NCBI GenBank assembly: GCA_963725155.1
Contig: CAVRXU010000002.1
Location: 492,506-556,505, forward strand
DNA from: an uncultured Microthrixaceae bacterium
GTDB lineage: Bacteria; Actinomycetota; Acidimicrobiia; Acidimicrobiales; DATDAH01
DNA: 64,000 bases
Reading direction: 5' to 3'
The translations under genes and the position numbers were made by a program. Below the pieces are notes generated by a model. It was given only the letters and a program-made list of their open reading frames with translations, ran no database searches and had not been told where the DNA came from. This document shows positions 5,501-35,771 of the stretch, in pieces (the stretch's first letter is position 1; each line of letters starts with the position of its first letter).

Positions 5501-5705
5501 GCGGGCGGTGGACGAGGCGGCCGCCGTGGAGGCGCCGATGCTCCAACTGCGGGCTGCGCTCCGCCTGGGCCAGCTGTGGCGCAGGCAGGGAAGGGCGGCG
5601 GATGCCCGACGGCTGGTGGGGGAGGCGTACGACCGGATGAGCGAGGGCTTCGCCACCGCCGACCTGCGGGAGGCCAAGGCCCTCCTGGACGATCTCGCCG
5701 ACTAG
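2547..5705 (+). CDS. class III adenylate/guanylate cyclase - AAA/STAND ATPase - TPR multidomain protein (no C-terminal LuxR HTH seen)
   Basis: GTVTFLFTDIEGSS and FQIVGDAF cyclase motifs. Walker A GPGGTGKTRLA, then LLVLDNFEQV. Long helical repeat C-terminus. Start uncertain (GTG 2547 or in-frame GTG 2580 downstream of GGAGGGGGGAAGG). Confidence 0.85.
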   Translation: MEGGRRDGGRSVTHRRTGGERTGTTTGRPPPSGTVTFLFTDIEGSSDVAQRHPDAFPALLERHHAILRQAVEGHDGFVFQIVGDAFCVAFHTAGDGLGAALDAQRLLLAEQWAPARIRVRMGLNTGTARAETEGDRAGGYTGYSTLARVQRVMSAGHGGQVVMSDSTAIQVRGDLPDGVTLRDLGRHQLKGLLEPEHLWQLVVPDLPDSFPPLMTLSTVPSNLPVALNTFVGRSRELQQIEDLLGEARLVTLLGPGGTGKTRLALEVASRLRDRYEDRVYLVDLSASRDLDAVLSLTAQAVGLREERPDRTLFDDLKEQIGDQRTLLVLDNFEQVLDAAPVVNQLLEDCARLTLLVTTREALRLRGEQVFPVPPLALPRTDDETVFESIARTDAVQLFVERARAVQPDFRLTEENARTVAELCLGLDGLPLAIELATARLGLLSPEALVERLGSRLDLLKGGPRDAPARQRTLRDTIGWSYAMLDQGEQWLFGLFSVFSGASVEAVEEVAGRVDGGPEVDVLEAISSLVAKSLIRRVDGGADPSRLRMLETIREFAAARLEEDPTVARSARRAHASWFAEWTNARWAELTGSVRDTAADRMMADIDNVRTAWRHWVDEKDVEQLGRLTDSLWLLYEEKGWYHATVSLTTDLLDVLGSTPSTPDRLVEEITLQTSLARVLMVVRGVTQEVEDAFTRALELCEGRGEVPELLPVLRGLSTFYIYRAEFANSAKMAERILGLAERHDDADARVEGHLVLGVSLAFLGRLRSGMENLEKGIAAFDREKHASRPFQLGNNSGVVCFTTSAMVLWMLGYPDRARDRGHEAIALAEELDHPSSIAYANFHTGLVHLWRREPDEVEACTRAVIDVAEEYDFQLWRVVSSCLRGAALVENGAADVGLALVQAAVITYQRLQTPPVFWPLLLHIYAGACGAAGRPEEGMALADEAIAVAETSEGQTLASELLHRRGDLLLAAAPEREAEAEAWLQRAVDEAAAVEAPMLQLRAALRLGQLWRRQGRAADARRLVGEAYDRMSEGFATADLREAKALLDDLAD

Positions 5706-7780: not shown

Positions 7781-8443
7781 TCAGGTGACCCGAATGGCCC
7801 TCGCCGGTGACCAGTCGGAGGACGCATCGCCCGCCTGTTGGCGGACGCGAGCACGGATCATCCACGGCCCCCGCACCGCGGGCCAGAACCTCGCCGAGGC
7901 CGCCGTGACCCCGGTGCGCCAATCGACGAACCCCTCGGTGCCGGGGCGGCGGCGTTGGACGTCGAACACCAAGCCCGTCGGCGCCCGGGCCGCCGCCCAT
8001 CGCACGGTGACCGGCGAGCCCGCCGCGCTCTGGGTGCGGCTGGCCCTCACCGGCACGCGGATGCGCCCGGCCATCTCGGGGTGGAAGGTGCAGTAGTACC
8101 GGTAGCCACCGGCGCCCGGCAGGGGTCCGACGGTCACCGTGTCCGGTGACGAGATGAAGCCAGTGTTGAAGAGGTCGAGGCCCGACCCGTCCCAGGCGTC
8201 GTGCACCACCTGGCCGAAGTTCGTGAACTCCAGGCTCTGGCCCTGGGTCACGAGCGTGACCGCCGGGGCGTACCGGTTGTCGAACATGGTGATGTCACCG
8301 GCCGGGTTCCCCGCACCCGCCGGCGCCGAGCCCACGAGGGCGCCACCGGCGAGCACGGTGCCGGCAGCCAGCAACCATCGACGGACCACCGACCGGCCTG
8401 GCCGTGCGCCCGCGGCCCGCGGCCCTTGGTCCTGACGAGACAT
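7781..8443 (-). CDS. secreted cupredoxin (amicyanin/plastocyanin-like blue copper protein) with extra C-terminal beta domain
   Basis: Start MSRQDQ at 8443 behind GAAGGAG. Twin-Arg-like signal (RSVVRRWLLAAGTVLAGGALVG). Copper ligand loop YYCTFHPEMAG (C-x2-H-x2-M as in amicyanin). Confidence 0.75.
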   Translation of the reverse strand: MSRQDQGPRAAGARPGRSVVRRWLLAAGTVLAGGALVGSAPAGAGNPAGDITMFDNRYAPAVTLVTQGQSLEFTNFGQVVHDAWDGSGLDLFNTGFISSPDTVTVGPLPGAGGYRYYCTFHPEMAGRIRVPVRASRTQSAAGSPVTVRWAAARAPTGLVFDVQRRRPGTEGFVDWRTGVTAASARFWPAVRGPWMIRARVRQQAGDASSDWSPARAIRVT

Positions 8444-8540
8444 CCCGCACTCCTTCAGGATCGACAACGGGCCGCTCTACCCATCGGCGCGAACCGGTGC
8501 CCTTCTGAAGTCACTCGCGGGCGGCCTGTGCCCCAGACGG

Positions 8541-10334
8541 CTACCCCGCGAAGGTGGGAGTGGCCGAGATCGGCGCCACCGTGCCGGGTGGGGCGGCTGC
8601 TCGTCGGCGCTCGAAGTCGGTGGCGATCCGGTCCGAGCGGTCCAGATCGGCTCCCAGGTCCATCGCGACGAGCGCGCACGGGCTCACGGCGCAGTTGACG
8701 AGCCGTCCGTCGGACAGGTGGAGGAACTGACGTAGTCGCAGGCGGGTGCGCCACGCCACGCCGGCGGCGGGCCCACCCTCTGAGCCAGTCCCGTCGAAGT
8801 GCGAGTGGACGTAATGCCGCGTCCGCCGAGCGCAGCCGCCGACGTCGGTGGCGTTGGCCGCACACTGCATGAGGACGACGGTGCCTTCGGGGCGTCCTCC
8901 TGTACCCGATACCCGCACTTGGTCGCCGCCGTGCAGGCCGGCGAGGTCACCGGTCCGGAACCGGGGCTCCATCAGCGGTCGGCTGTCGTCGAACTCGAGG
9001 GGGGTCCTCACCGCCTCGCTGAGGTCCTCGAAGTCGTCCTCCGCGAACACGAACAGTGAGCACGACCGGACTCGGCAGTCGAAGCGGCCTCGTGACACCC
9101 GGAAGGTGGCGGCCACGCCCTGACGGAGGGTCAACCCACCGTCCTCGTCGGTCTCGGCGAACCCGAACGTGTTCGTGTCGCAGCCACCGAAGTCAATGGC
9201 CGCGGACCGGCACTGCACCACGGCGACGTAGTTGTTCGGCCGCCAGCCCGCGCCGTCGACCTCGACGATGTCGCCGTCGGCCAACCCGGTCGACGGCGTG
9301 ACGGTGACGGTCGGCGGCGGGGCCAACGGACCTGCGGGGTCGAAGTCGAGCGCGGCCTGCGCTCCCGCGGCGAAGCCCTCGTCGCTGTCCCGTACCGACA
9401 GCACGCACCCACCTGTGCGGCAGTCGTGGGTGGCCCCGCCCTCGAGATGCAGGATTGTCTCCACCCGGAACGGCGTGTCCAGATGGCCGTCGGTGTCGAC
9501 CTCTCCGAACCCGTACGTGCTGTTGTCACAGTCGTCGTAGCCGTCGGCCGGCAGCCGGCACTGGAGGAGCTCGGCGTAGCCACCCCAGCGGGGATCGAGC
9601 GTGAAGTCGTCGCCGGTCACCTGCACCTGCTGGTGATCGACCAGTCCGGAGTCGGGGTCGACCGTGACGGTGCGGCGCACCGGGTCGGGCCCCGCGGGGT
9701 CGAAGCTCAGCTCCACGAACCGGGCGCCGGTGGCCGACGGGTTGTTGTTGGAGCCGATGACGCAGACCTCGACACGGCAGTCGAAGGTCCCCTCGCTGGT
9801 CTCCAGCATCACGACGACCTCGTACTCGAGGCGAAAGTTGCCCGCCGCGTCGGTCTGGGCGAACTCGACCCGCCCACAGCCCGCGGTGCTGGAGATGCCC
9901 GAGATGCACTGCGCCGCCCCCTGGCCACCGTCGTGGGGCTGCCACCCGCGGCCCCGGATCACAACGACCTGGCCGTGGACGAGGTTGTTGTGGGGAGTGA
10001 CCGTCAGGGTGCGGGGCCCGCCCTCGGTGACGGGCGGATCGGCCTCGACCGTGGTCGCGGCGACGGGATCCTCGGGTACGTCCGGTTCGGTGGCCGGTTC
10101 GTCGGCCGGCGTGGTGGTCGGGGGCAACGTCGTGTCGGTCGGGACGGTGTCGGGCCCGCTCGTGATCGGCACCGCGGGGTCACTCGCCGCCGGGTCCTGC
10201 TGGGCGCCGCTGGCGGCCGGCCAGGCGGCCGCCAACAGCAGCGCGATCAGCAGGACCACCCCCCTTCCCCTCACCGTGCGGGACCTTAGGGCTCCTCGCT
10301 CGGTCGATGAAGGACGTGCGCCACGGTTGTCCAC
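8541..10334 (-). CDS. secreted protein with four Cys-containing Ig-like (neocarzinostatin-family-like) repeats
   Basis: Signal/TM VVLLIALLLAAAWPAASGAQQ and a Thr/Pro-rich linker. Four repeats of about 110-120 aa of form TVTV.P..GL..G..V.V.G.G(W/F)...QC....C......G.F.....DCR...C. Confidence 0.7.
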   Translation of the reverse strand: MDNRGARPSSTERGALRSRTVRGRGVVLLIALLLAAAWPAASGAQQDPAASDPAVPITSGPDTVPTDTTLPPTTTPADEPATEPDVPEDPVAATTVEADPPVTEGGPRTLTVTPHNNLVHGQVVVIRGRGWQPHDGGQGAAQCISGISSTAGCGRVEFAQTDAAGNFRLEYEVVVMLETSEGTFDCRVEVCVIGSNNNPSATGARFVELSFDPAGPDPVRRTVTVDPDSGLVDHQQVQVTGDDFTLDPRWGGYAELLQCRLPADGYDDCDNSTYGFGEVDTDGHLDTPFRVETILHLEGGATHDCRTGGCVLSVRDSDEGFAAGAQAALDFDPAGPLAPPPTVTVTPSTGLADGDIVEVDGAGWRPNNYVAVVQCRSAAIDFGGCDTNTFGFAETDEDGGLTLRQGVAATFRVSRGRFDCRVRSCSLFVFAEDDFEDLSEAVRTPLEFDDSRPLMEPRFRTGDLAGLHGGDQVRVSGTGGRPEGTVVLMQCAANATDVGGCARRTRHYVHSHFDGTGSEGGPAAGVAWRTRLRLRQFLHLSDGRLVNCAVSPCALVAMDLGADLDRSDRIATDFERRRAAAPPGTVAPISATPTFAG

Positions 10335-10479
10335 GTTGCTCTCCCCTCGGACGCCGGCGCCCGTGACCGGTTGTGACGATCCGACCTGCCCGATGGTTCC
10401 CCGGCAGCGCGAGGATTTCCCAGCCAGGGCAGAGCGACAGACGGTCAGGGCGGCCGCTGCCGGAAGAGGCTGCGTCCGA

Positions 10480-10684
10480 GTGTCAGCATTTTCCCTAGAC
10501 GGGACTCAGCTGTCTGCCTATGGCCCTCACCACCCTCCGCTGTCACGCTGTGTGGCGCACAGAGAATCCAAGGGTCTATCCTCCGGTCAACGCATCACGT
10601 AGAGTGATGGGTCTGGACCCCGAGAGTGGTCCTTCGAGGCGATCTAACGGAACCGACGGGGTTCCAAGGGAGAGGGGCGTTTTG
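10480..10684 (+). promoter_or_regulatory. conserved promoter/5' leader, copy A (candidate cis-regulatory RNA)
   Basis: Nucleotide-level match to the reverse complement of 34799-35004. Local hairpins at 10593-10609 (CATCAC-GTAGA-GTGATG), 10615-10632 (GGACC...GGTCC) and 10649-10665 (GGAACC-GACGG-GGTTCC). The last abuts the SD AAGGGAGAGGGG and ATG 10685. Confidence 0.6.
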
Positions 10685-13477
10685 ATGGCGGTTACCACGG
10701 AGTGGGCCGACGTGTCGGCCACCGTTCAGCCGGCCGCGGGTCCGGGCAAGGCGGGTAGGCCGGCTGCATTGCTGAGGGCGCTGGTTGCAGCGATTCTCGC
10801 AGTGTGCTCGATCGCGCTGGCTGTCGCGAGCCCGCAGGCGGCGCAGGCGTCGATCTCGCAGCCTGCGCTGGTGTCGGAGAACCCGTCCGACACCACCCCC
10901 CACATCATCATGGGGACCGCGGGGGAGGACATCCGCGCCTTCGCTCAGGTCGGCAACACGGTGTATGCCGGTGGCCTGTTCAACCAGGTCCAGGACTGGG
11001 CCAGGACGACCACCTACAACCGGCAGAACTTCGTCGCCTTCGACCGCGAGACCGGGGTCGTCTCCCCGCTCGACCTCGCCTTCAACGGGCGGGTCGGTGG
11101 CATCGAGGCCACCGCCGATGGAACGGCGCTGTTCATCGCCGGCGCCTTCTCGAAGGTCAACGGGATCACCCGCCGGGGTCTGGTCAAGTACGACCTGGTC
11201 AACAACCGGATCGACCCGACCTTCCTGGCCGGGAACATGCGAACGGTCTCTGACATCAAGCTGGCCAACGGTTCGCTCATCGCCGCGGGGAACTTCACCG
11301 GGCATGTGGCGGCGCTGAACCCGACCACGGGCGCCAACCTCGGCACCATCAACGTCACCGTGGCCGGGGTGGTCAATCCGGGCGACGAGACCCGGGTCCG
11401 ACACATCGCGGTGTCCCCCAACGGCACCCGGCTGGTGGCCACCGGCAACTTCGCCACGGTCAACGGCCAGAGCCGCAGGCGGGCCTTCATGCTCAACCTT
11501 GGCGCCACCGCCACCCTGAGCACCTGGCACGCCCCCCGTTTCGATGTGACCTGCGCGGCGGGCGGCAGCCGGCTGGAAAGCGCCCAGGGCGTGGACTTCT
11601 CCCCTGACGGCACCTACTTCGTGGTCGTGGCCACCGGCGGGCCGACCGGCACCAACGGGGTCTGTGACGCCGCGGCCCGGTTCGAGACCGCCAATGTCAG
11701 CGCCAACGCCGCGCCCACCTGGATCAACTGGACCGGCGGCGACACCCTCTACAGCGTGGCCATCACCGGCGTGGCGGTCTATGTCGGCGGCCACCAACGC
11801 TGGCTCGACAACCCCCAGGGCCGCGACTCCGCCGGTCCCGGCGCCGTGTCCCGCCCGGGCATCGGCGCCCTCAACCCGACGACCGGCACGGCGTTGCCCT
11901 GGAACCCGACCAAGTCCCGCAACCACGGCACCATGGTCCTCTACCCCACCCCACAAGGGCTCTGGGTGGGCAGCGACGGCACCGAGTTCGGGCACGAACC
12001 CCACGACGGGATCGGCTTCGCCCCCCTCGACGTCGCCTCCCCGCCGGACACGACCCGGCCCAACACGACCATCACCGCGGGCCCGTCCGGCTCGGTGACG
12101 GCCACCTCGGCCACGTTCAGCTTCTCCTCCACCGAAGCGGGGGCGTTCCAGTGCCGCCTCGACAGCGCCGCTTTCGCCCCCTGCACCTCACCGACGAGCT
12201 ACGCCGACCTGGCCCTCGGCGCCCACACCTTCCAAGTGGTCGCCAGCGACCCCTCGCTCAACGTGGACTTCACCGCAGCGGTGAGGACATGGACCGTGCA
12301 GTCCGGCGACGGCAACCTGGTCGGAAACCCGGGCTTCGAGGTGGACACGTCCGGTTGGACGGGCGACGTGGCGGCCAACACGCTGAGCCGAGTCGCGGGC
12401 GGGCACTCAGGCGGCTGGGCGGCCGAGGTCTCGAACACCGTGGCCGGTGGAAGCTGCGGGCTCAACGACCAGCCGGGCTGGGTGGGCCTCACCGAGGCCG
12501 GCAGCTACGCCGTGAGCATCTGGGCCCGCTCGGACACCCCCGGGCTCACGCTGAGACTGCGGGTCCGTGAGTTCGCGGGCGGCGTGCAGCAGGGCTCGGC
12601 CTCACCCACGATGGCGCTGACCTCGTCGTGGCAACAGCTGACGGCGAACTACACACCCGTCGCGCCGGGATCGTCGAACCTCGATGTCGAGGCCTTCACG
12701 GCCAGCTCGCCCGTCGGGGTGTGCTTCCGCGCTGACGACGCATCCATCACCCACGGCCCCCCGCCCGACACGACCCCGCCCGACACGGTCATCGACTCGG
12801 GTCCGTCGGGTTCGGTGACGGACACGTCGGCCACCTTCAGCTTCTCGTCCACCGAGCCGGGGACGTTCCAGTGCAGCCTCGACGGCGCTGGGTTCGCCCC
12901 GTGCACCTCACCGGCGAGCTACTCGGGTCTGGCCGCGACCTCGCACACCTTCCAGGTCGCCGCCGTCGACAACTCGCTCAACGTCGACGCCAGCCCGGCG
13001 GAGCGGACCTGGACCGTGCTGCCACCGGCGGTCAACCTGGTCGGAAACCCCGGGTTCGAGGTGGACACGTCCGGCTGGACGGGTGATGCGGCTTCCAACA
13101 CGCTGAGCCGGGTCGCGGGCGGGCACTCGGGTGGTTGGGCCGCGCAGATCTCCAACACCGTGGCCGGTGCCAACTGCGGGGTCAGCGACAAGCCGAACTG
13201 GGTGACCACCACACAGGCCGGTGCCTACACCGTGGGCTTCTGGGCCCGATCGGACACCCCCGGGCTCACCTTCAGGGTGCGCGTGCGCGAGTACGCGGGC
13301 GGCGTGCTGCAGGGATCGATCTCGACCTCGGTGGCACTCACCTCGTCGTGGCAACTGGTGACCACGGCCTACACGCCGGTCGCGCCGGGATCGTCGACCC
13401 TTGACGTCGAGGCCTACACGATCAGCTCGCCCGTCGGCGTGTGCCTCCAGCTCGACGACGCATCCATCACCCACTGA
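10685..13477 (+). CDS. large secreted protein: N-terminal beta-propeller (DUF5122-like GxF..VNG repeats) followed by two [Ig-like + CBM4/9-like] modules
   Basis: Start trimmed to MAVTTEWADVS (ATG 10685). TM/signal ALVAAILAVCSIALAVASPQAAQA. Repeats YAGGLFNQV / FIAGAFSKVNG / VATGNFATVNG. Two modules PSGSVT.TSATFSFSS...FQC.LD...CTSP.SY...HTF.V then NLVGNPGFEVDTSGWTG.... Confidence 0.85.
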   Translation: MAVTTEWADVSATVQPAAGPGKAGRPAALLRALVAAILAVCSIALAVASPQAAQASISQPALVSENPSDTTPHIIMGTAGEDIRAFAQVGNTVYAGGLFNQVQDWARTTTYNRQNFVAFDRETGVVSPLDLAFNGRVGGIEATADGTALFIAGAFSKVNGITRRGLVKYDLVNNRIDPTFLAGNMRTVSDIKLANGSLIAAGNFTGHVAALNPTTGANLGTINVTVAGVVNPGDETRVRHIAVSPNGTRLVATGNFATVNGQSRRRAFMLNLGATATLSTWHAPRFDVTCAAGGSRLESAQGVDFSPDGTYFVVVATGGPTGTNGVCDAAARFETANVSANAAPTWINWTGGDTLYSVAITGVAVYVGGHQRWLDNPQGRDSAGPGAVSRPGIGALNPTTGTALPWNPTKSRNHGTMVLYPTPQGLWVGSDGTEFGHEPHDGIGFAPLDVASPPDTTRPNTTITAGPSGSVTATSATFSFSSTEAGAFQCRLDSAAFAPCTSPTSYADLALGAHTFQVVASDPSLNVDFTAAVRTWTVQSGDGNLVGNPGFEVDTSGWTGDVAANTLSRVAGGHSGGWAAEVSNTVAGGSCGLNDQPGWVGLTEAGSYAVSIWARSDTPGLTLRLRVREFAGGVQQGSASPTMALTSSWQQLTANYTPVAPGSSNLDVEAFTASSPVGVCFRADDASITHGPPPDTTPPDTVIDSGPSGSVTDTSATFSFSSTEPGTFQCSLDGAGFAPCTSPASYSGLAATSHTFQVAAVDNSLNVDASPAERTWTVLPPAVNLVGNPGFEVDTSGWTGDAASNTLSRVAGGHSGGWAAQISNTVAGANCGVSDKPNWVTTTQAGAYTVGFWARSDTPGLTFRVRVREYAGGVLQGSISTSVALTSSWQLVTTAYTPVAPGSSTLDVEAYTISSPVGVCLQLDDASITH
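12041..13477 (+). repeat. intragenic tandem duplication, 2 units of about 720 bp (Ig-like + CBM module)
   Basis: Unit 1 starts ccgccggacacgacccggcccaac (12041). Unit 2 starts ccgcccgacacgaccccgcccgac (12761). Diverged copies aligned by eye along the whole unit. Confidence 0.85.
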
Positions 13478-13485
13478 GCCGCGAG

Positions 13486-13515
13486 CCGCTCCCACCCAAC
13501 GGGGGGTGGGAGCGG
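13486..13515 (+). terminator. GC-rich stem-loop just after the stop of 10685-13477
   Basis: CCGCTCCCACCC-aacggg-GGGTGGGAGCGG, a perfect 12-bp stem. No U-tract follows, which is common in high-GC actinobacteria. Confidence 0.5.
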
Positions 13516-13597
13516 ACTCGCGACATGGGGGGCCCGAACCGGTCCGAGGGCCGTGCGGCTGTACCCACACCGCACCAGGCTCTGGTACACCCACACG

Positions 13598-14161
13598 ATG
13601 AACCAGATGCACCGTGACTTCCTGGCCAGCCCGGCGTGGGCCCAGATGCTCGAGGACGAGCTGGCCCCCTGGCTCGACGGGATCGGTGACCTCGGTGACG
13701 ACGTGCTGGAGGTCGGTCCCGGACCGGGCCTCGTCACCGACCTGCTCCGGGCCCGAGTGTCCCAGGTGACGGCCGTCGAGCTCGACCCCGACCTCGCGTC
13801 GGCGCTGGCCACGCGCTTGGCGGGGACGGGCGTCCAGGTCATCCACGGCGACGCGGCACGGACCGACCTTCCCGGCGACCGCTTCTCGGCGGCAGTGTGC
13901 TGTTCGATGCTGCACCACGTCCCCACGTCGTCAGCCCAGGACGACGTCCTGCGTGAGCTCGGCCGAGTCGTTCGACCCGGCGGTCGGCTCGTGCTGGTCG
14001 ACTCACGAGACGAGCCGCCCATCCGGGCGTTCCATGAAGACGACACCTTCATGCCCCTCCCCGAGGAGACGATCATCGCCCGGACCGAGGTCGCCGGGTT
14101 CGTCGACGCCGACCTCGTGATCGACGAGTTCGAGCTGAGGCTCCACGCCGTGAAGAGATAG
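13598..14161 (+). CDS. class I SAM-dependent methyltransferase
   Basis: Motif I VLEVGPGPGLVT, then VTAVELDP and VIHGDA. Start taken at MNQMHRDF (ATG 13598). Confidence 0.8.
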   Translation: MNQMHRDFLASPAWAQMLEDELAPWLDGIGDLGDDVLEVGPGPGLVTDLLRARVSQVTAVELDPDLASALATRLAGTGVQVIHGDAARTDLPGDRFSAAVCCSMLHHVPTSSAQDDVLRELGRVVRPGGRLVLVDSRDEPPIRAFHEDDTFMPLPEETIIARTEVAGFVDADLVIDEFELRLHAVKR

Positions 14162-14213: not shown

Positions 14214-16403
14214 GTGCACCTGGAGGCGGCGAACGGGCTGGCCCTCGACGTGTCGGACGGCGGGACCGTCCGCATCGGTTGGGGCGAGCCCGACTGGTTC
14301 GGCCCCGGCACCGCCACCCCGCCGAGGTCGGGTCCCGTCGCCTCACCGGTCCTGTGGGTCGACGACCTGGGTGAGGCCGGCGTCGTCGTCGTCGTCGACG
14401 GCCCGATCCGATGCTCGGTCAGGGCCTACGACGACCGCCCGATGCTCGTGTTCCGGAGCGAATCCACCACCGCCCTGTCGGGTCTCGCCACCGGCGCCTT
14501 CGACCGGCCGTCGGTCGGGTGGCCGGTCTTCACCCCCGTCGAGCGGCTGGCCGGCGGCGTGCCCGACGGCACCCGGGCCCTCGTCTTCCAGCACTGCGAG
14601 TTCGGCCTGCCGAGCCAGGCCGGATCCGACCTCGACGGATTCTTCCTCCTGCCCCACCGGCCGCCGACAGGCTGGCCCCTGCTCCTCGCCGCCCCCGACA
14701 GCCGCACGCTCCTCGTGGCGCCTCTCGACGCCTTCCACGAGCAGACCATCGGGCTGAACGCCGGCACCGTCCGCTGTGGGTGGCACGGCGACCTGGAGGA
14801 GGTCGACGCCGGTTTCGCGACGGAGTTGCTGGTCCTCGCCGGCGACGGGCCGCGGGCGTGCCTCGACGAGTGGGGCCGGCTGCTGCTCGAGCGGGCCGGC
14901 ACCGTGCGTCCGGGCCGCTGGCCCGACGCCCTCGGATCCCGTCCGTCGTACTGGACCGACAACGGCGCCGCCTACTGGTACCGGACCGAACCGGGGCACG
15001 ACCCGGCCGGATCGGTCGTCGCCGCCGTCGACGACCTACGCGAGCGGGGCGTCCCACTGGGCAGCGTGCAGCTCGACTCGTGGTTCTACCCGCACGTCGA
15101 CCTGCGACCGTTCGACACCGACGAGTGGGTCGTCCCGCCGTCGGCCCTCATGGCCTGGGAGGCCCGTCCGAACATCCTGCCCGACGGCATCGGCGACCTC
15201 CGGGCCCGCCTCGGTCACCCGCTGGTCGCCCACATCCGTCACCTGTCGTCCGAGGCACCGATCGCCCGCGAGGTGCCGGTGGCGACCGACGGCCCGTACG
15301 CCGTGCCCACCACCCCCGAGGCCTACGAGCGGTGGCTCGACCAATGCCTCGCCTGGGGCGTCGAGACCTTCGAGCACGACTGGATGGTCGAGGTGTTCTT
15401 CGGCGTGCGGTGGCTCCGGGCCCGTCCCGGGCGGGCGCAGGCGTGGCAGGAGGGGATCGACCGGGCGGCCCGCGCCCGGGGCATCACCCTGCAGTGGTGC
15501 ATGGCCACCCCGGCCGACTTCGCCCAGACCGTCACCCTCACCCAGGTCACGTCGGTGCGCACCAGCGGCGACCACGGTTACATCGCCACGCCTGGCCAGC
15601 TCTGGGCCTGGTTCTGCACCACCAACGCCCTCGCCCGCAGCCTCGGGCTGATGCCGTTCAAGGACGTCTTCCGGGCCGACCCCGACGTGGCGGGCGACGA
15701 CGGTGAGCCGGAGGCGCTGCTGTCGGCGCTGTCCACCGGGCCGGTGGCGCTCGGCGACCGGGTCGGCCGGTCGGACCCCTCCCTGGCCCTCCGCACGTGT
15801 CGGGCCGACGGGCTCCTGATCAAGCCCGACGTGCCCGTCGCCGCCACCGACGAGTCGATGGTCGGCTCCGCCGCCTTCCAGAGCGAACTGCTGGTCGCCG
15901 AGTGCTTCTCCGACCACCCGGCCGGCCGCTGGGCGTACGTCGTCGGCCTCCACGCCAACCCCTCGGACGCGCCGGTCACCGGCGACATCGCCCTCGCGGA
16001 GCTCGGAGCGAGCGCGCCGGCCGGCGACGTCGTGGTGTGGGACTGGCGAGCGGGCACGGCGACGCGGTTACCTGGCGACGCGACGTGGCCGACAACGCTT
16101 CCGAGGGAGGGGTGGACCTATCTCGTGCTGGCTCCGGTGCTGCCCACCGGCCTGGCGGTGATCGGCGACACCAGCAAGTTCGTCACAGCAGGCGACGCTC
16201 GCCTGGAGGTCACCGCCACCGACAGCGGCGCCCGGCTCGTGGTAAAGGGTCCGGCCGAGTCGGTCACGATCACCGGGTGGGCCGAGCGGACACCCGACGC
16301 CGGCGAGCTACCGGTCGACCATGATCCCGCCACCGGGGTGTGGACCATCGTCGTCGAGGTGTCGGAGCGAGGTTGGGTCACGGTCGATCTCGAGGCGGGC
16401 TGA
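14214..16403 (+). CDS. hypothetical protein, possible TIM-barrel glycoside hydrolase with C-terminal beta-sandwich
   Basis: 729-aa ORF with coding-like composition. Motifs YWTDNGAAYWY, VQLDSWFYPH and FEHDWM are reminiscent of glycosidase barrels. No family assignment possible by eye. Confidence 0.45.
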   Translation: MHLEAANGLALDVSDGGTVRIGWGEPDWFGPGTATPPRSGPVASPVLWVDDLGEAGVVVVVDGPIRCSVRAYDDRPMLVFRSESTTALSGLATGAFDRPSVGWPVFTPVERLAGGVPDGTRALVFQHCEFGLPSQAGSDLDGFFLLPHRPPTGWPLLLAAPDSRTLLVAPLDAFHEQTIGLNAGTVRCGWHGDLEEVDAGFATELLVLAGDGPRACLDEWGRLLLERAGTVRPGRWPDALGSRPSYWTDNGAAYWYRTEPGHDPAGSVVAAVDDLRERGVPLGSVQLDSWFYPHVDLRPFDTDEWVVPPSALMAWEARPNILPDGIGDLRARLGHPLVAHIRHLSSEAPIAREVPVATDGPYAVPTTPEAYERWLDQCLAWGVETFEHDWMVEVFFGVRWLRARPGRAQAWQEGIDRAARARGITLQWCMATPADFAQTVTLTQVTSVRTSGDHGYIATPGQLWAWFCTTNALARSLGLMPFKDVFRADPDVAGDDGEPEALLSALSTGPVALGDRVGRSDPSLALRTCRADGLLIKPDVPVAATDESMVGSAAFQSELLVAECFSDHPAGRWAYVVGLHANPSDAPVTGDIALAELGASAPAGDVVVWDWRAGTATRLPGDATWPTTLPREGWTYLVLAPVLPTGLAVIGDTSKFVTAGDARLEVTATDSGARLVVKGPAESVTITGWAERTPDAGELPVDHDPATGVWTIVVEVSERGWVTVDLEAG

Positions 16404-17006: not shown

Positions 17007-18047
17007 CTACGAGGAGTTGAGCACGTAACGCGTGCCGACGACGCTCGGTGCGCAGCCGGTGGGACTGAAGGCATTCGCCAGTTCCGCGGCGGCTCGCCAG
17101 CCTGTGCAGTGAGCCGGCGCGACGATCTGTGGGGCGACGAGGTCGGACAGGTCTCGCACGGTCGGTTCGATGCGGTCCTCGACGGCGGTACCCGCGAGGT
17201 GGTAGCCGCCGAGAAGGAGGTCCACCGGTTGATCCGGGAGCAGCCGCCGGGCCTCGAGGCCGACGTTGACGACTCCGGCGTGAGAACAGGCGGTGAGCAC
17301 GGTCGTGCCGCGGCCGTGGACGCTGGCGGCCAGGAATCGCTCGTCGTGGATCTCCGGATCGAGGGTCACCTGCTCTCCTTGCCAGGTGTGGTGTCCCGCG
17401 AGGCCGGTCTCATAGCTGGTCTGGCGCGGGATGTCGCCGCTGGCGAGAAAGAGATCGGCGACGGCGTGGAGCTCGGCGTGAGTGGTGACGCGGGCGCCGG
17501 CCGCCTCGATCGCGGCGATGGTGGGCTCCGGCGGCAGCATCGCGAAGATCTCGAAGGGGGTGAGGATCCCGCGCTGGTCCGGCCGGTCGGGGTGGACATC
17601 GACGACGAGCGGCGGGTGGCCGGCCTTCCCGCGCGCTTCGGCGATGGCGGTGACGACGTCGGTGATGCCGCCGGAGTGGTCCCAGTGCCAGTGCGACAGG
17701 AACAGCACGTCGATGCCGGACAGGTCGACCGCCAATCGCTCGGCGTTGGCGAGCCAGACGTCGCCGTAGGGGCCGACATCGAACAACACCGTGGCCTTGC
17801 GATCTCCCTGTCGCGCGGTGGCGAGGGCGGAGAACCCGTGACAGGCGACGCAGAGGTGGTCGAAGGCCACAACGCAGTCGTGGCCTTCGTGCCGGCCGCT
17901 GGGCGGGATGCTTCCGAGCAGGTGGGCCATCTCCGGCAGCTGCGGGATGCCCGGGCCGATGCTCGAGAGCGTGTCGGTTGCGTTGTCGACGACGACCGTG
18001 ATGGTGAGCTCGTCGAGCTCGGGCACAGCCGTCGGGTCGGGTGCCAT
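17007..18047 (-). CDS. MBL-fold metallo-hydrolase
   Basis: Start trimmed to MAPDPTAVPELDELTITVVVDN (ATG 18047). HxHxDH motif LSHWHWDHSGG. Confidence 0.85.
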   Translation of the reverse strand: MAPDPTAVPELDELTITVVVDNATDTLSSIGPGIPQLPEMAHLLGSIPPSGRHEGHDCVVAFDHLCVACHGFSALATARQGDRKATVLFDVGPYGDVWLANAERLAVDLSGIDVLFLSHWHWDHSGGITDVVTAIAEARGKAGHPPLVVDVHPDRPDQRGILTPFEIFAMLPPEPTIAAIEAAGARVTTHAELHAVADLFLASGDIPRQTSYETGLAGHHTWQGEQVTLDPEIHDERFLAASVHGRGTTVLTACSHAGVVNVGLEARRLLPDQPVDLLLGGYHLAGTAVEDRIEPTVRDLSDLVAPQIVAPAHCTGWRAAAELANAFSPTGCAPSVVGTRYVLNSS

Positions 18048-18151
18048 CGCCCCATGGTCCCAGAGCCGTCGGCCGCCGGCCACTGGTCGGCCGTGTCCGG
18101 AAAGACCACCGCGATACGGCGACCGCGGACAGTGGCGAGTATGGTTACTCC

Positions 18152-22912: not shown

Positions 22913-22932
22913 GGGGGTCCTGTTCTCTGAAG

Positions 22933-32055: not shown

Positions 32056-34010
32056 GTCGGGCCGTGGGTGGGTTCGAGGAGTCGTTCGGCCATGGCGGCC
32101 CGAGCCTCGACGAAGACGGTGTCGAAGGGCTGGTTGGCGTCCATCTCCACCACACCGAGCTCGGCCCGCTCGAACAGCAGGCCCTCGACCACCTGCTTGC
32201 GGGTGACGAGTGACTGGGGGTCGTGCCCGGGGCGGCGACGAGCCGCAGTCTCCTCGTCGACGTTCAGGCGGATGACGAGGTCGGGCTGGAACGCGTGGGC
32301 CTGCTCGTACGGCTTCCGCTCCCACCTCGCCAGCCCCTGCCGCCACCGACTGTCCGACGACAACCACGCATCGAGCAGCGGCCCGTCGATGATGCCCGGC
32401 ACCTGGGCCTGTGGGTAGCGGTCGCACAGCACGAGAGCGCCATTGCGCGCCGCTCGACGAGCCTGACGGAGCTTCGACCGCTTCTCCTGGGCGAGGGCCA
32501 GCGCCCACACCCACCGTGAGGTCTCCAGGGCGCGCGGAGCCCGCTCCTGGACGGCTTTCCGACGGGCTTCCGTGCCCTTGGCGCCGAACACCGCTCGCTT
32601 GACGTACGCCAGCGGCCGCCGTAGCAGGGACGACGGACCGTCGCCGCTGCCGAGGTAGAGGTGAACCACCTCCTGGTCTTCAGCGAAGCTCTCGGCGAGG
32701 GCACGGCTCAGCGTCGACTTCCCGGAGCCGTCGGACCCGACCACCGCCACGACGCGGCCCGTGACCCGGCGCTCGCTCTGCTTCACCGCGAGGACCGAGT
32801 TCACGAGATCCCGGTAGCCCTCCCGCACCCGAGTCGGACTCCACGACGACAAGTCGATCGTGGGCCCGCTTCGTTCGACGGGCCACCGAAGGTACGGCAG
32901 CGCCGCACGGGCGGCCCCGACGACGTCGCCCACGTCGACGACCTTTCCCGGGGCGCCGAGCTCGAGCAGCTCGTCGGCACCGTCGACATCGGTGGCGATG
33001 AACGGGGTTCCCGCGGCCGCGGCCTGGACCAGCACCTGCGGCAGGCCCTCTGCCCGACTCATGAGCACGACGACATCAGACGCGACGAACAGGTCGCGGG
33101 GATCGTCGACGTGGCCCAGCAACTGGCAGTCACCGTCGAGGCCGATCTGGCGGACCAGGGAACGGAGCCGGGCCTCCTCTGGCCCGGCACCGGCCACCAC
33201 CAAGAAGGGCGAAGGGCCGGCGCTGAGCTGGATCATCTGCTGCAGCAGGATCGGGAGGTCGAGGACGCGCTTGCGCTCCTCCAGGCTCCCGACATACAGG
33301 ATCCACGGTCGATCTTCGGGCAGCGCGTGGGTGTGGGCCATGGCCCGTCGTATCTCGGGCCGGTCCGCCTCGGCGGCCGGCAGCCGGGCGGCGGAACGGA
33401 TGACGGTCAACTTCTCCGCCGGGACCCCGATGTGGGCGAATCGGCTGGCGAGGTCGGTGCCCACGACCGCGTAGGCAGCCGTCCATCGCGAAAGGGCCCA
33501 TTCGAGGGTGCGAAAGAGTCGGCTCTCGTAGGTGCTGTACCCGGGGCCGAAGTCCGCCATCGACAACGAGTGGACGACGGGAGGGGCCCCCGCGATGCTC
33601 GCCGCCAGCCGACCGAGGACACCGGACTTGGACTGGTGGGTGACCACGAGCGCATAGTCAGAGTCTTTGATGGTCTGGCGCAGGCGCGAGAGGGCGATGG
33701 CGTCTTGCCACGGACTCACGGGCCGCCGCAGGCTCGGTTCCAGGGTCACCCGGGCGCCGGCGAGCTGATGGCTGGCGAGGTCGATGTCCGAGTCACGACC
33801 GATGATCACGTGGTGCTGGTGCTCCGGGAGGGCGGCCACCATGTCGCGCAGGCGCCGCTCGGAGCCGCCCTGGTCGAACCGGGTGCACACGTGGAGGATC
33901 CGCCTGGGCAGGCGAGCGACCCCGTTGGGGCCCGCCGTCACGGAAGCGGTGAAGTTGTGTTCTGCTGTCACGGGAGCGGCGCCGTTGCGTTCGGGTCTGA
34001 CCCCGTTCAC
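32052..34010 (-). CDS. fusion: GT4-family glycosyltransferase + C-terminal thymidylate-kinase-like P-loop domain
   Basis: GTG start in a GTGA overlap with the sugar transferase stop (34007-34010). GT4 features RILHVCTRFDQGGSER, ILYVGSLEERKRV, MSRAEGLPQVLVQAAAAGTPFIATDVDG. Then VVAVVGSDGSGKSTLSRAL (about 32717-32750), LVLCDRYP, PDLVIRLNVDEE. Confidence 0.8.
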   Translation of the reverse strand: MNGVRPERNGAAPVTAEHNFTASVTAGPNGVARLPRRILHVCTRFDQGGSERRLRDMVAALPEHQHHVIIGRDSDIDLASHQLAGARVTLEPSLRRPVSPWQDAIALSRLRQTIKDSDYALVVTHQSKSGVLGRLAASIAGAPPVVHSLSMADFGPGYSTYESRLFRTLEWALSRWTAAYAVVGTDLASRFAHIGVPAEKLTVIRSAARLPAAEADRPEIRRAMAHTHALPEDRPWILYVGSLEERKRVLDLPILLQQMIQLSAGPSPFLVVAGAGPEEARLRSLVRQIGLDGDCQLLGHVDDPRDLFVASDVVVLMSRAEGLPQVLVQAAAAGTPFIATDVDGADELLELGAPGKVVDVGDVVGAARAALPYLRWPVERSGPTIDLSSWSPTRVREGYRDLVNSVLAVKQSERRVTGRVVAVVGSDGSGKSTLSRALAESFAEDQEVVHLYLGSGDGPSSLLRRPLAYVKRAVFGAKGTEARRKAVQERAPRALETSRWVWALALAQEKRSKLRQARRAARNGALVLCDRYPQAQVPGIIDGPLLDAWLSSDSRWRQGLARWERKPYEQAHAFQPDLVIRLNVDEETAARRRPGHDPQSLVTRKQVVEGLLFERAELGVVEMDANQPFDTVFVEARAAMAERLLEPTHGPT

Positions 34011-34798
34011 CGTGATTCGCCGGGCTCGGGCCGCAGGACGCACCGGACGGTTCGGCGCAGGATGTCGACGTCCCCGACGAGCGAGCGGTTGAGCGCATAC
34101 TCGACGTCGAGGCGGACGCGTTCCTCGTAGGGGATCGCGTTGCGGCCGTTCACCTGCCAGGCGCCGGTCATGCCCGGTCGCACCTGGAGCACGACTTGGG
34201 CACAACTGCCGTATCGCCCGAGTTCCTCGGGGACGACGGGCCGCGGGCCCACCAGGCTCATGTCACCCCGCAGGACGTTGATCAGCTGGGGCAGCTCGTC
34301 CAGGCTCGTCCGGCGAAGAACGCGGCCGACGCGGGTGATCCGCGGGTCGGACTGGAGCTTGAAGTCCTTCTCGAACGCGGCGCGCGCCTCCGGGTCCTCG
34401 AGGAGGATGACCGCGAGCCGCTCCTCGGCGTCGGTCCGCATCGTCCTGAACTTCATGCACTCGAATGGCTCGCCGTGCCTGCCGATGCGGGTCTGGCGGA
34501 AGATCGCCGGCCCTCGGGACGTGAGGGCCACCGCGGCCGCCACCACCAACATCAAGGGTGCGGTCAGGATGGTGATCAGACTCGCGACGACGAGGTCGAA
34601 CGTGCGCTGGGCCGCGTCGGCTCGAAGGCACCGTCCCCGGGCCCGCTCGACCATCCGGGCCTCGAAGGCCAACCTCCCGGACTCGACCTGCGGGCGGGCC
34701 AGCGCGCGCAACAGCGCAGCCGGTGTGACCGCCGAACCCGGACCCGCGGCCGGCTGGACGGTGGCCGACGTGTCGGCCAACTCAGTGGTAACCGCCAT
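34007..34798 (-). CDS. polyprenyl-phosphate sugar phosphotransferase (bacterial sugar transferase, WbaP/EpsL-type initiating enzyme)
   Basis: Start trimmed to MAVTTELADTS (ATG 34798, SD GAGGGAGAGGGG). TM FDLVVASLITILTAPLMLVVAAAVAL. Motifs KFRTM and SLDELPQLINVLRGDMSLVGPRP. Confidence 0.9.
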   Translation of the reverse strand: MAVTTELADTSATVQPAAGPGSAVTPAALLRALARPQVESGRLAFEARMVERARGRCLRADAAQRTFDLVVASLITILTAPLMLVVAAAVALTSRGPAIFRQTRIGRHGEPFECMKFRTMRTDAEERLAVILLEDPEARAAFEKDFKLQSDPRITRVGRVLRRTSLDELPQLINVLRGDMSLVGPRPVVPEELGRYGSCAQVVLQVRPGMTGAWQVNGRNAIPYEERVRLDVEYALNRSLVGDVDILRRTVRCVLRPEPGESR

Positions 34799-35004
34799 CG
34801 GAAGTGCCCCTCTCCCTCGGAACCCCGTCGGTTCCAGTTGTTCGCCGCCTCGACAAGGACCACGCTTCGGGTCCAGCAGCACCACTCTGCGTGGTGCACT
34901 CTGGAGCATAGAACCTTGTTTCCCTGTGCGCAAAGAGTGGCAGTCGGGGGTGACCAGGCGCCATAGGGAGACGTCTGAGTAGCTGGTAGGGAAAATGCTG
35001 AGAC
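34799..35004 (-). promoter_or_regulatory. conserved promoter/5' leader, copy B (candidate cis-regulatory RNA of the glycan operon)
   Basis: Reverse complement aligns with 10480-10684. Shared blocks: TCAGCATTTTCCCTA, ACTCAG..GTCT.CCTATGGC, GCGCACAG.GAA..CAAGG.TCTAT.CTCC, hairpin CACCAC-GCAGA-GTGGTG, CTGGACCC...TGGTCCTT, GGAACCGACGGGGTTCC, then the SD. Confidence 0.6.
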
Positions 35005-35039
35005 ACGTCTCAGCATAATGCCGACATGTAGTCAGCATT
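34995..35039. promoter_or_regulatory. array of two adjacent palindromes built from ATGCTGA(G/C)AC-type half sites (candidate transcription factor operator)
   Basis: 34995-35016 ATGCTGAGAC-ac-GTCTCAGCAT (perfect 10+10). 35017-35039 AATGCCGAC-atgta-GTCAGCATT (one mismatch). Related half sites at 10483-10491 (GTCAGCATT), 35852-35858 and 35890-35896 (AATGCT.). Confidence 0.5.
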
Positions 35040-35093: not shown

Positions 35094-35771
35094 TCAGTCG
35101 ATACCGATGACGGACACGATGCCGTGTCGGATCGCGTACTTGCAGAGGGCGACGTCGTTGTGGAGGTTCAGCTTCTTCATGATGTGCTCGCGATGCGTAC
35201 TCACCGTCTTGGGACTGATCGACAGCCGGGCTGCGATCTCTCCCGTGCCGAGGCTGTCCGCGATGAGCTCCAACACCTCGTACTCGCGGCCGGTGAGATG
35301 GGGCTCATCGGTGTGGTCCCCCCCTCGGTGGGCCACGTAGTCGCGGACCAGGTCGCCGGCTATGGCCGGGCTCAGGTACGTCTGGTTGGCGGCCACCGCG
35401 CGGATGGCCGTCAGCACCTCTTTGGTTTCGGCGCTCCAGAGCACATAGCCCGAGGCCCCCGCCTCGAGCAGATCCGACAGGACGCGCCGATCGCCGTGGT
35501 GGGAGAAGCAGAGCACGCTGGCATCCGGGTGCTCGGCGAGGATCCGGCGCGTCGCTTCGACACCGTTCGACTTGGACGTCGAGACGTCCATGAGCACGAC
35601 CCCCGGAGGGTTCTCCCGGGCGGCATCGACGGCGGCGTCGCCGTCCGGGGCCATACCGACGACCGTGATGTCCGGTTCCCGCTCTACCACGGTCTGTAGG
35701 CCCTCTCGCAACAGAGGGTGGTCATCGACCACGAGGACCCGGGTGGGCATCGCCGTCATCCGGTCACCCAC
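35094..35771 (-). CDS. NarL/LuxR-family response regulator (no adjacent histidine kinase)
   Basis: Receiver RVLVVDDHPLLREGL...VVLMDV. C-terminal HTH LTGREYEVLELIADSLGTGEIAARLSISPKTVSTHREHIMKKL. Start may be M1, M5 or M8 of the ORF. Confidence 0.9.
   Translation of the reverse strand: MGDRMTAMPTRVLVVDDHPLLREGLQTVVEREPDITVVGMAPDGDAAVDAARENPPGVVLMDVSTSKSNGVEATRRILAEHPDASVLCFSHHGDRRVLSDLLEAGASGYVLWSAETKEVLTAIRAVAANQTYLSPAIAGDLVRDYVAHRGGDHTDEPHLTGREYEVLELIADSLGTGEIAARLSISPKTVSTHREHIMKKLNLHNDVALCKYAIRHGIVSVIGID

Follow-up and report, generated by a model that had tools for sequence, protein, structure and literature searches.

Why should two genes for unrelated proteins, 24 kb apart in the genome of an uncultured actinobacterium, begin with a similar stretch of ~300 nt of DNA, most of it untranslated? 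The locus was analysed as a window, i.e., a continuous stretch of 64,000 nt in which positions are counted from the first letter. One of the two genes (gene A) encodes a putatively secreted glycan-binding protein, while the other (gene B) is the first gene of a minus-strand sulfated-EPS operon of roughly 15 kb that runs to about 19818. The features on which the argument depends are as follows.

10483..10784, plus strand: module copy A, with a 202-nt 5' leader, the ATG start codon of gene A at 10685 and the first 33 codons of gene A (blastn; alignment against copy B).
10685..13477, plus strand: gene A, putatively secreted beta-propeller/CBM_4_9 protein of 930 aa (Pfam; N-termini of 120 homologs).
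13479..13522, plus strand: GC-rich hairpin 3' of gene A (-40.9 kcal/mol), at which homology between the window and locus L001 of a related MAG ends.
34007..34798, minus strand: gene B, initiating sugar transferase (Bac_transf) of 263 aa (Pfam; gene order repeated in loci L002 and L006).
34699..35001, minus strand: module copy B, the native copy, with a 203-nt 5' leader, the ATG start codon of gene B at 34798 and the first 33 codons of gene B (blastn; alignment).
35094..35771, minus strand: NarL/LuxR-type response regulator gene, directly upstream of gene B on the same strand and a candidate regulator (Pfam).

The original prediction had placed the match at about 10480-10790 against the reverse complement of 34693-35004, and blastn bears this out: 10477-10784 (plus strand) and 35007-34699 (minus strand) align at 76.8% identity over 315 columns with 7 gap openings (E=2.3e-59). 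Neither blastn nor follow-up sequence scans found a third copy in the 64-kb window, which leaves a total of two. Global alignment of the untranslated leaders (10483-10684 and 35001-34799) gives 73.7% identity. Comparison with shuffled controls outside the coding part, which had been put forward as a check, gave a local score of 96 for the untranslated 202 nt as compared to 10.8±1.8 (maximum 20; z ~48) for 500 dinucleotide-preserving shuffles, with about 500 random genomic windows yielding the same background; on this comparison, the homology of the two leaders is established. The leader alignment contains six indels of 1-5 nt each, so that reading frames differ between the copies as had been claimed, and the in-frame upstream translations reported earlier (…SNGTDGVPRERG in one copy and …LEPTGFRGRG in the other) are correct. 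The description of the module as conserved in nucleotides rather than as a reading frame is thus accurate for the 5' untranslated ~200 nt but not for the coding third, which is conserved as a frame.

Across codons 1-33, genes A and B show 21 identical codons, 7 synonymous differences (including AGG/CGC for Arg and TTG CTG/CTG TTG for Leu-Leu) and 5 non-synonymous differences. These codons are under coding constraint. Homology ends at codon 34, and the proteins are unrelated past codon 33, gene A carrying CBM_4_9 and DUF5122 propeller domains and gene B a Bac_transf domain by Pfam; a common N-terminus followed by full divergence, as well as a unit attached to two unrelated genes, had been predicted correctly. 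While A and B share 83% identity over codons 1-33, gene A in the window and its L001 ortholog share only 56%; the N-terminal similarity between A and B thus reflects an exchange specific to the window's genome. In the N-terminal alignment, the B-derived residues 1-33 of gene A are followed by the usual signal-peptide core of the family and an AQA cleavage motif; by inspection, …GRPAALLRAL-VAAILAVCSIALAVASPQAAQA|SISQP can be aligned to the canonical signal peptides of the family, with an N-region that is, at 33 residues, unusually long. Use of the grafted ATG is favored because synonymous changes are in excess in codons 1-33. Translation of gene A from a downstream start (e.g., TTG 10770) is a possible alternative.

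Orthologs of gene B keep both the leader type and the N-terminus MAVTTELAD…PAALLRALARPQ, and those with identities down to ~67% retain MA(V/L)T… and …L(L/V)RALARPQ(V/L)xSGRLAFEARMV. Leaders of the B type are recognizable upstream of B orthologs in three clades, with leaders orthologous to copy B found in L087/L002/L007/L014, L089, L092, and L088; the response regulator gene also neighbors B in L002, L003, L004, L006, L087, and L089. Homologs of gene A, more than 100 of them, have a different beginning; the 120 listed start with MRIFKKAAA… or MTTFKKAAA…, except for some N-terminally truncated proteins or proteins with other starts, and among these listed homologs, only the window's A and P0122 (locus L001, one related MAG) start with MAVTTE. 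As the leaders and the N-terminus are native to B orthologs and MAVTTE is rare among A homologs, sequence comparison establishes a lineage-specific graft from B to A. Its distribution is likewise established as narrow: the search for more leader copies that had been proposed, carried out as pattern scans of 185,579 GTDB species genomes, matched only L001 and L087, of one MAG, a pattern scan of JGI metagenomes gave no match, and the N-terminal 44 residues of protein A as a query, 33 of which are common to A and B, retrieved nothing but a frameshifted fragment of B from the species of the window itself.

In L001, homology to the window starts exactly at the module edge (i.e., the 5' edge of copy A) and ends at the terminal hairpin, and the module, gene A and the hairpin lie on the opposite side of the neocarzinostatin-family gene; module, gene A and hairpin thus form one self-contained unit. 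Within this unit, the window and L001 are 50-80% identical over the leader and signal peptide and 97-100% identical from about 10860 on, which gives copy A an established mosaic history. In favor of a functional link, A-family genes also adjoin the EPS cluster in other loci (e.g., L006).

We consider it probable (roughly 0.6) that the EPS-priming sugar transferase gene has the module as its native 5' control region and that a copy was grafted in frame onto gene A, which would now be co-controlled with the operon. The native module would consist of the right half of an upstream palindrome and a leader of ~200 nt, as well as the ribosome-binding site with its adjacent hairpin and the ATG with the initial codons. 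Recombination within a single narrow lineage of Acidimicrobiales would have joined a copy of it, in frame, to the 5' end of a paralog of a widespread secreted propeller/CBM_4_9 protein, replacing the gene's own upstream region and start codon and lengthening the N-region of the signal peptide by about 26 residues. Gene A would then be transcribed and translated by the signals of the EPS operon, and the glycan-binding protein would be produced together with the glycan. We infer from these comparisons that gene A and the EPS operon are under the same control. The most likely route would be through a palindrome-binding regulator at TCAGCAT-type half-sites, for which the adjacent NarL/LuxR response regulator is the obvious candidate, in combination with a common translation-initiation region that includes the hairpin. 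A broader version of the same idea, which seems unlikely at present, is that the leader serves as a previously undescribed, portable and self-sufficient control cassette specific to the sulfated-EPS loci of this Acidimicrobiales clade, recruiting genes and subject to gene conversion between loci; such a cassette could comprise an operator half-site, a structured 5' UTR with the hairpin and possibly the conserved MAVTTExAD codons, with conserved blocks that would mark out a new pairing of a regulator with RNA or with DNA.

The candidate operator sites at the 5' edge of the module are the following.

34995..35016, minus strand: palindrome O2, ATGCTGAGAC-GT-GTCTCAGCAT (ATGCTGA-N8-TCAGCAT), candidate operator (motif scan).
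35018..35038, minus strand: palindrome O1, ATGCTGAC-TACAT-GTCGGCAT, with the outer arms of O2, 22 nt upstream of O2 (centre to centre).
10467..10489, plus strand: degenerate O2 of copy A, AGGCTGC-N9-TCAGCAT, with the right arm exact and 5/7 positions of the left arm (motif scan).

Homology between A and B begins inside O2, the right arm of which (TCAGCAT) represents the first 7 nt of the module. This arm is exact in both A copies, while the left arm matches at 5/7 positions with a 9-nt spacer in the window and at 3/7 positions in L001. The heptamer ATGCTGA/TCAGCAT occurs 7 times in the window as compared to 3.0 expected occurrences, and three of the seven sites lie no more than 45 nt upstream of gene B, where they make up both palindromes. 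O2 retains its arms and 8-nt spacing in L092, L087, and L007 with the spacer sequence altered. Palindromic operators are known for NarL/LuxR (GerE)-family response regulators, and O1 and O2 resemble these as tandem palindromes with 7-nt arms and fixed spacing, with constant arms and a variable spacer, and in their position directly downstream of the regulator gene and upstream of the neighboring operon. They differ in that the A copies retain only one good arm; binding at O1 and O2 is a predicted role, and ATGCTGA-N8-TCAGCAT matches no operator known to us. O2 is followed by UUUU and lies at the extreme 5' edge of the leader, and an RNA hairpin or terminator reading of it is possible.

Within the leader, four further features are relevant.

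10512..10524, plus strand: conserved block GTCTGCCTATGGC (B equivalent 34972-34960), found in every leader type.
10593..10609, plus strand: hairpin CATCAC-GTAGA-GTGATG (B equivalent GCACCAC-GCAGA-GTGGTGC, 34897-34879).
10649..10677, plus strand: hairpin GGAACC-GACGG-GGTTCC (10649-10665) followed by the ribosome-binding site AGGGAGAGGGG (10667-10677) (RNA folding; alignment).
34807..34835, minus strand: copy B counterpart of this hairpin and ribosome-binding site (sequence scan).

The conserved block is present in L089, and in L010 as GTCTCCCGATGG; sequences invariant across A, B and L001 include TCAGCATTTTCCCTA as well as GGAACCGACGGGGTTCC followed, after one base, by AGGGAGAGGGGC. The block with the hairpin and ribosome-binding site is identical in A and B save for one position (A in copy A, G in copy B).

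These features raise the possibility, which we regard as doubtful, that the active element transplanted with the module is a cis-regulatory RNA (riboswitch-like, thermosensor or protein-binding) that would act on translation or stability by occluding the ribosome-binding site; such an RNA would explain how the grafted module works and would leave its origin as in the graft model. Consistent with such an RNA, nearly every B leader type has a hairpin at a distance of 2-8 nt upstream of its ribosome-binding site, of a sequence that differs among the types, with stems GGAACC/GGUUCC, GAUCC/GGAUC, GGGAACCCC/GGGGUUCC, CGCU/AGCG, and CAGC/GCUG; in L089, the GAUCC-GACGG-GGAUC form reflects one compensatory change (A-U to U-A), and in L087 the stem is extended. 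The hairpin at 10593..10609 also carries one compensatory pair (U-A in A, C-G in B), and RNAalifold on three sequences pairs the 5' UUUUCCCU with AGGGAGAG. By contrast, the full leaders have minimum free energy (MFE) z-scores of -0.06, -0.5, and -2.3 (-0.2 to -2.2 for the 3' halves), and the covariation term, about 0 overall, changes from +2.35 with three sequences to -0.25 with six, few of which are independent, as the consensus structure shifts between the two sets; apart from one small hairpin beside the ribosome-binding site, no robust covariation was found in the leader. Rfam 15 gave no match in the whole window at the gathering score, and at E<=10 only two chance-level matches between 10350 and 10850 (15 and 12 bits, where the thresholds are 55 and 45). 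A long-distance pairing of the 5' UUUUCCCU with the ribosome-binding site was rejected, as it was predicted with three sequences and lost with six, is the best partner in no leader, and is disrupted in L092, whose block reads UUUCUCUG with no compensatory change. The leader overall, moreover, evolves like spacer DNA. Leaders with translational control through a hairpin at the ribosome-binding site include riboswitch expression platforms, RNA thermometers and repressor-binding hairpins, and the module resembles these in that divergent leaders retain a small hairpin directly before a strong ribosome-binding site; it differs from them in that the ribosome-binding site is outside the hairpin, a conserved core of the ligand-binding type is lacking, and thermodynamic and covariation signals are not significant.

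A consensus promoter scan passed no promoter in either module copy. TTGCGC-N17-TATGCT (34933-34905) is a plausible candidate in B, with TGGCGC-N18-TATCCT (10553-10582) as its equivalent in A; promoter candidates inside the module are not shared by all leader types, and we rejected a sigma-70-type promoter, given the empty consensus scan and the lack of conservation of this candidate in L087 and L001. We also rejected an ECF-type promoter in which Block 1 would serve as the -35 and CGTCT as the -10 element, since the spacing fits two clades but L089 has ~55 extra nt between the two elements. A terminator scan found no intrinsic terminator in the B leader and, in the A leader, one weak site that coincides with the ribosome-binding region.

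An explanation without any regulatory consequence is that ectopic recombination or gene conversion between the two loci left the A copy behind as a neutral remnant, which provides gene A merely with some promoter and a start codon. The high divergence between A and B (26%), the mosaic history of the window's A relative to L001 and the star-like distances among four leaders are compatible with this account. Substitution patterns, however, differ among sites: in a comparison that depends in part on the alignment, which the conserved blocks themselves guide, the two A leaders are 74% identical at columns that are conserved between B orthologs but 49% identical elsewhere (Fisher p=3.5e-4). Sites that are slow in B leaders are therefore also slow in A leaders, so that the A copy looks constrained, which argues for function. 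As blocks are invariant in both A copies and B, the frame and an intact start are retained in two lineages, and the relocated unit in L001 retains the exact 5' edge, we judge a neutral leftover to be quite unlikely. The original proposal of a shared cis-regulatory unit is supported indirectly by this established, site-specific constraint on the A copies and by the half-palindrome that they retain, while the direction from B to A had to be added to it. This constraint should be seen against a background in which B orthologs share 64% identity in the leader, 60% in the upstream spacer and 87.5% in the coding sequence. Taken over its full length, the leader evolves about as fast as neighboring intergenic DNA, and constraint is limited to short blocks. 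Leader distances were rejected as a guide to the order of events, as the four taxa are nearly star-like with an internal branch of ~3%, and a single capture followed by conversion fits about as well as repeated capture.

It is highly improbable that the two copies bound a mobile or invertible segment of 24.5 kb (10483-35001) as its inverted terminal repeats. While they are inverted and bracket the EPS cluster, their identity is only 77%, the edges of the unit have neither target duplications nor terminal repeats, no transposase or recombinase was found among the genes scanned with Pfam, the A unit occurs alone and in another context in L001, and B orthologs have the leader without a partner copy nearby. 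Related genomes showed no alternative orientation, other sites or empty site of this segment, and a mobile element in a wider sense (IS, MITE or composite transposon) was rejected given two copies only, no edge repeats and no transposase in the scanned genes. Equally improbable is a small upstream ORF or a longer N-terminal extension from the ATG in CCTATGGC (10520 in A). This ATG is shared by A, B, L001 and L087; in A, it lies in the frame of gene A, and in B and L001, it is the start of a ~60-codon ORF that ends over the main start. It is, however, not preceded by a ribosome-binding site and is replaced by ATA in L007, and the peptides are unrelated because of frame-shifting indels.

Regulon growth through duplication of a cis-regulatory region together with a start codon is already known, and the graft favored here, itself a known way in which bacterial regulation is rewired, is a well-delimited and clean example rather than a new principle. 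It represents a natural promoter swap in an uncultured actinobacterial lineage and marks ~300 nt as sufficient to carry over. The short fixed blocks (TCAGCAT, GTCTNCCTATGGC, and the hairpin with the ribosome-binding site) represent targets in the search for the EPS regulator of Acidimicrobiales, and a prediction that follows from the graft is that the sulfated polysaccharide is the substrate or partner of the propeller/CBM_4_9 protein.

A close parallel is the upstream homology box (UHB) of Borrelia burgdorferi, an upstream block that reaches into the coding start (the lipoprotein leader), has been spread by recombination and places genes under common regulation. As in the erp/ospE/ospF genes, where genes for dissimilar proteins have a common upstream promoter block, the non-homologous genes A and B have upstream non-coding DNA and first codons in common. 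OspE paralogs have been described as sharing with OspF "similar promoter sequences" that include the UHB (PMC7002432). The present case differs in consisting of two chromosomal copies with 74-77% identity in an actinobacterium, whereas the UHB is a multi-copy family on prophage plasmids; in addition, a biosynthetic operon served here as donor of its control region, antigenic variation plays no part, and common regulation of the two genes is a predicted feature.

Processive antitermination is associated with a number of 5' leaders of polysaccharide operons, including JUMPStart/ops with RfaH, the EAR RNA of Bacillus eps, and LoaP leaders. The module is similar to these in that a leader of ~200 nt with blocks and hairpins precedes an EPS operon of ~15 kb. 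Unlike EAR, which is represented in Rfam, the copies have no Rfam match, and none of 41 window ORFs scanned with Pfam has a KOW/NusG domain. An RfaH ops element was rejected, as GGCGGTTAC (GGCGGT(T/A)AC), which overlaps the start codon, agrees with the ops core at just 6-7/8 positions and belongs to the coding part. Antitermination would, moreover, be of no use to gene A, which is monocistronic.

Finally, we considered and rejected an ANTAR target. ANTAR targets consist of paired hexaloops, while the leader hairpins have, by eye, 5-nt loops, and the window is without an ANTAR gene. In L006, a GAF-ANTAR gene neighbors the EPS cluster.

Gene A, which encodes the secreted propeller/CBM_4_9 protein, and gene B, which encodes the Bac_transf sugar transferase, share a module consisting of a ~200-nt 5' leader, the start codon and the first 33 codons. 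The original prediction of a block-by-block alignment upstream of and into the coding sequences was borne out by blastn, which aligned A 10477-10784 (+) with B 35007-34699 (-) at 76.8% identity over 315 columns, with 7 gap openings and E=2e-59; no third copy similar to either module was found within the 64-kb window. The untranslated part alone (10483-10684 versus 35001-34799) was 73.7% identical and, in the comparison with shuffled controls named beforehand, its local score was 96, versus 10.8±1.8 for dinucleotide shuffles and likewise for random genomic windows. The claim that the module is conserved as nucleotides and not as a reading frame holds for the upstream 200 nt, where indels shift the frame between A and B; it does not hold for codons 1-33 (21 identical, 7 with synonymous and 5 with non-synonymous differences). 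Similarity stops at codon 34, and the coding third of the module therefore has a conserved reading frame. The features concerned are as follows.

10483-10784 (+): module copy A, with start codon ATG 10685
10685-13477 (+): gene A, CBM_4_9/propeller protein, 930 aa
13479-13522: hairpin closing gene A, -40.9 kcal/mol
35771-35094 (-): NarL/LuxR-type response regulator gene, same strand as B and immediately upstream of it
35038-35018 (-): palindrome O1, ATGCTGAC-TACAT-GTCGGCAT
35016-34995 (-): palindrome O2, ATGCTGAGAC-GT-GTCTCAGCAT
35001-34699 (-): module copy B, with start codon ATG 34798
34798-34007 (-): gene B, Bac_transf sugar transferase, opening a minus-strand operon that reaches ~19.8 kb (GT4 with P-loop domain, Wzy, Wzx, PKD/CBM96 protein, epimerase, sulfotransferase, pyruvate-kinase-barrel/PUA/ATP-sulfurylase fusion, PhyH)

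Comparison with public data indicates that B is the native site of the module, which reached A by a lineage-specific graft. B orthologs begin MAVTTELADTSA… or MA(L/M/I)T…, and they retain …L(L/V)RALARPQ(V/L)xSGRLAFEARMV down to ~67% identity. Module-type leaders precede B orthologs in several clades, i.e., at loci L087, L002, L003, L004, L007 and L014 (86% protein identity), L089 (82%), L092 (94%) and L088 (the window's own species, leader identical). The A family is large, and most of its best 120 homologs have a short signal peptide at the N-terminus (MRIFKKAAACALCS… or MTTFKKAAA…); some are N-terminally truncated or start differently. Among these 120, the MAVTTE start is found only in the window's A and in P0122, the A protein of locus L001 in an Acidimicrobiales MAG. 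In the N-terminal alignment, ~26 B-derived residues precede the ancestral start of the A family. The B-derived tract ends at the ancestral Met in L001 (…PRA/RIFRKAAAG) and is 7 codons longer in the window (…PA/ALLRAL/VAAILAV).

The neighborhood of the L001 A ortholog, which also carries the module, is rearranged; module, gene A and hairpin (block 10483-13515) are found on the opposite side of a neocarzinostatin-family gene, and window/L001 homology starts precisely at the module's 5' edge and stops at the hairpin. Between window 8530-13515 and L001 1815-6795, the neocarzinostatin-family gene (8541-10334, minus strand; 597 aa, three repeats, divergent from gene A) and the gene A unit have exchanged places, each keeping its orientation, and no counterpart of the methyltransferase at 13553-14161 was detectable in L001. 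The same MAG also has a B ortholog (L087), which carries the other leader type.

Pairwise identity of the four leaders (win, window copy)
A_win – B_win: 73.7%
A_win – A_L001: 69.7%
B_win – A_L001: 75.2%
B_win – B_L087: 63.9%
A_win – B_L087: 59.5%
A_L001 – B_L087: 66.1%

The almost star-like distances leave a single capture followed by gene conversion inseparable from repeated capture. Exchange after capture is pointed to by codons 1-33, where A_win is 83% identical to B_win and only 56% to A_L001, together with a jump in identity between the A copies, which are 50-80% identical in leader and signal peptide and 97-100% identical from ~10860 onward (approximately window 10860-11600 versus L001 5080-5920). 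Four-fold sites in codons 100-300 changed by 0-2%, and flanking genes are 88% identical; the gene A body thus indicates a recent recombination tract ending at the signal-peptide cleavage site.

In one lineage, the 5' control region and first codons of the EPS operon were thus grafted onto the secreted propeller/CBM_4_9 gene, and this would most likely couple expression of that protein to EPS synthesis. The B operon is a sulfated-EPS locus, and a functional link between protein and glycan is plausible since A-family genes adjoin this EPS cluster in other genomes too (e.g., L006). Gene A looks monocistronic, given the strong hairpin at its end. Among described systems, the nearest parallel is the upstream homology box common to the dissimilar Borrelia erp/ospE/ospF genes (PMC7002432); the A/B graft is a real, well delimited case of an already known kind.

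The leader as a whole drifts at the rate of spacer DNA, but unevenly. Identity between B orthologs is 64% for the leader, 60% for the upstream spacer and 87.5% for coding sequence, while the A copies are 74% identical at columns shared by the two B orthologs versus 49% at the remaining columns (Fisher p=3.5e-4, in an alignment itself guided by the conserved blocks). A, B and L001 share the invariant blocks TCAGCATTTTCCCTA; CTCAG..GTCT.CCTATGGC; GGAACCGACGGGGTTCC followed after one base by AGGGAGAGGGGC; and ATGGCGGT.ACCAC.GAGT.GGCCGA. The leaders of L010 and L006, although more distant, still contain GTCT(G/C)CC(T/G)ATGG and, after it, …C(C)TG.CA.

Because the exact 5' edge of the unit is kept in three unrelated contexts, a promoter inside the module would be the more economical assumption. 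A promoter consensus scan was empty; a candidate within the module is TTGCGC-N17-TATGCT (34933-34905), to which TGGCGC-N18-TATCCT (10553-10582) corresponds in A. An ECF-like reading of two leader blocks as -35 and -10 was rejected on spacing in L089.

Upstream of B, between the response regulator gene (a neighbor conserved in relatives) and the EPS operon, O1 and O2 stand in tandem with identical outer arms ATGCTGA…TC(A/G)GCAT and centers 22 nt apart. The window contains 7 occurrences of the arm heptamer versus 3.0 expected, 3 of the 7 lying within 45 nt upstream of B, and CAGCATT is likewise found 88 nt upstream of the response regulator gene. The edge of A/B homology lies within O2, the module's first 7 nt being the right arm of this palindrome (TCAGCAT); in the A copies this arm is exact and the left arm degenerate (AGGCTGC at 10467-10473, 9-nt spacer). 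In L092, L087 and L007, the arms (G/C)CTGA…TCAG(C/G) and their 8-nt spacing are kept and the spacer sequence is altered, a pattern that a protein-binding palindrome would fit better than an RNA stem. O1 and O2 could be operators, or a terminator of the regulator gene. O2 is followed by TTTT.

At the RNA level, a hairpin immediately 5' of the ribosome-binding site is found, with differing sequences, in almost every type of B leader. In L089 one of its A-U pairs is replaced by U-A, a compensatory change, and in L087 its stem is longer; a second hairpin (10593-10609; 34897-34879) shows one compensatory pair. Leader stability z-scores were not significant, the consensus fold of the leaders was unstable and its covariation term close to zero, and Rfam gave no match. 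Pairing of the 5' block with the ribosome-binding site was rejected, as it fails in L092.

An ANTAR gene was absent among the window ORFs scanned; in L006 (2.44-Mb genome contig), the response regulator that precedes the B ortholog has a GAF-ANTAR RNA-binding regulator gene (8170-8877) beside it. Sulfation genes around the EPS operon (20696-23844, 42083-46520), i.e., a 920-aa pyruvate-kinase barrel, PUA_2 and ATP-sulfurylase fusion, two sulfotransferases and a 1039-aa sulfatase-domain protein, suggest a sulfated exopolysaccharide in an Acidimicrobiales bacterium. Within gene A, an internal tandem duplication of ~720 nt (12019-13038; 300-nt cores 77% identical) yields a second CBM_4_9-type module, absent from most family members (~660 aa). 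The 1052-aa protein encoded at 2547-5705 has an adenylate/guanylate cyclase domain together with a STAND/NB-ARC NTPase and TPR repeats. Large ORFs at 14214-16403, 18041-19753 and 29888-31213 (729, 570 and 441 aa) have coding-like GC3 without a Pfam match; the last, located within the EPS operon, is conserved in L002.
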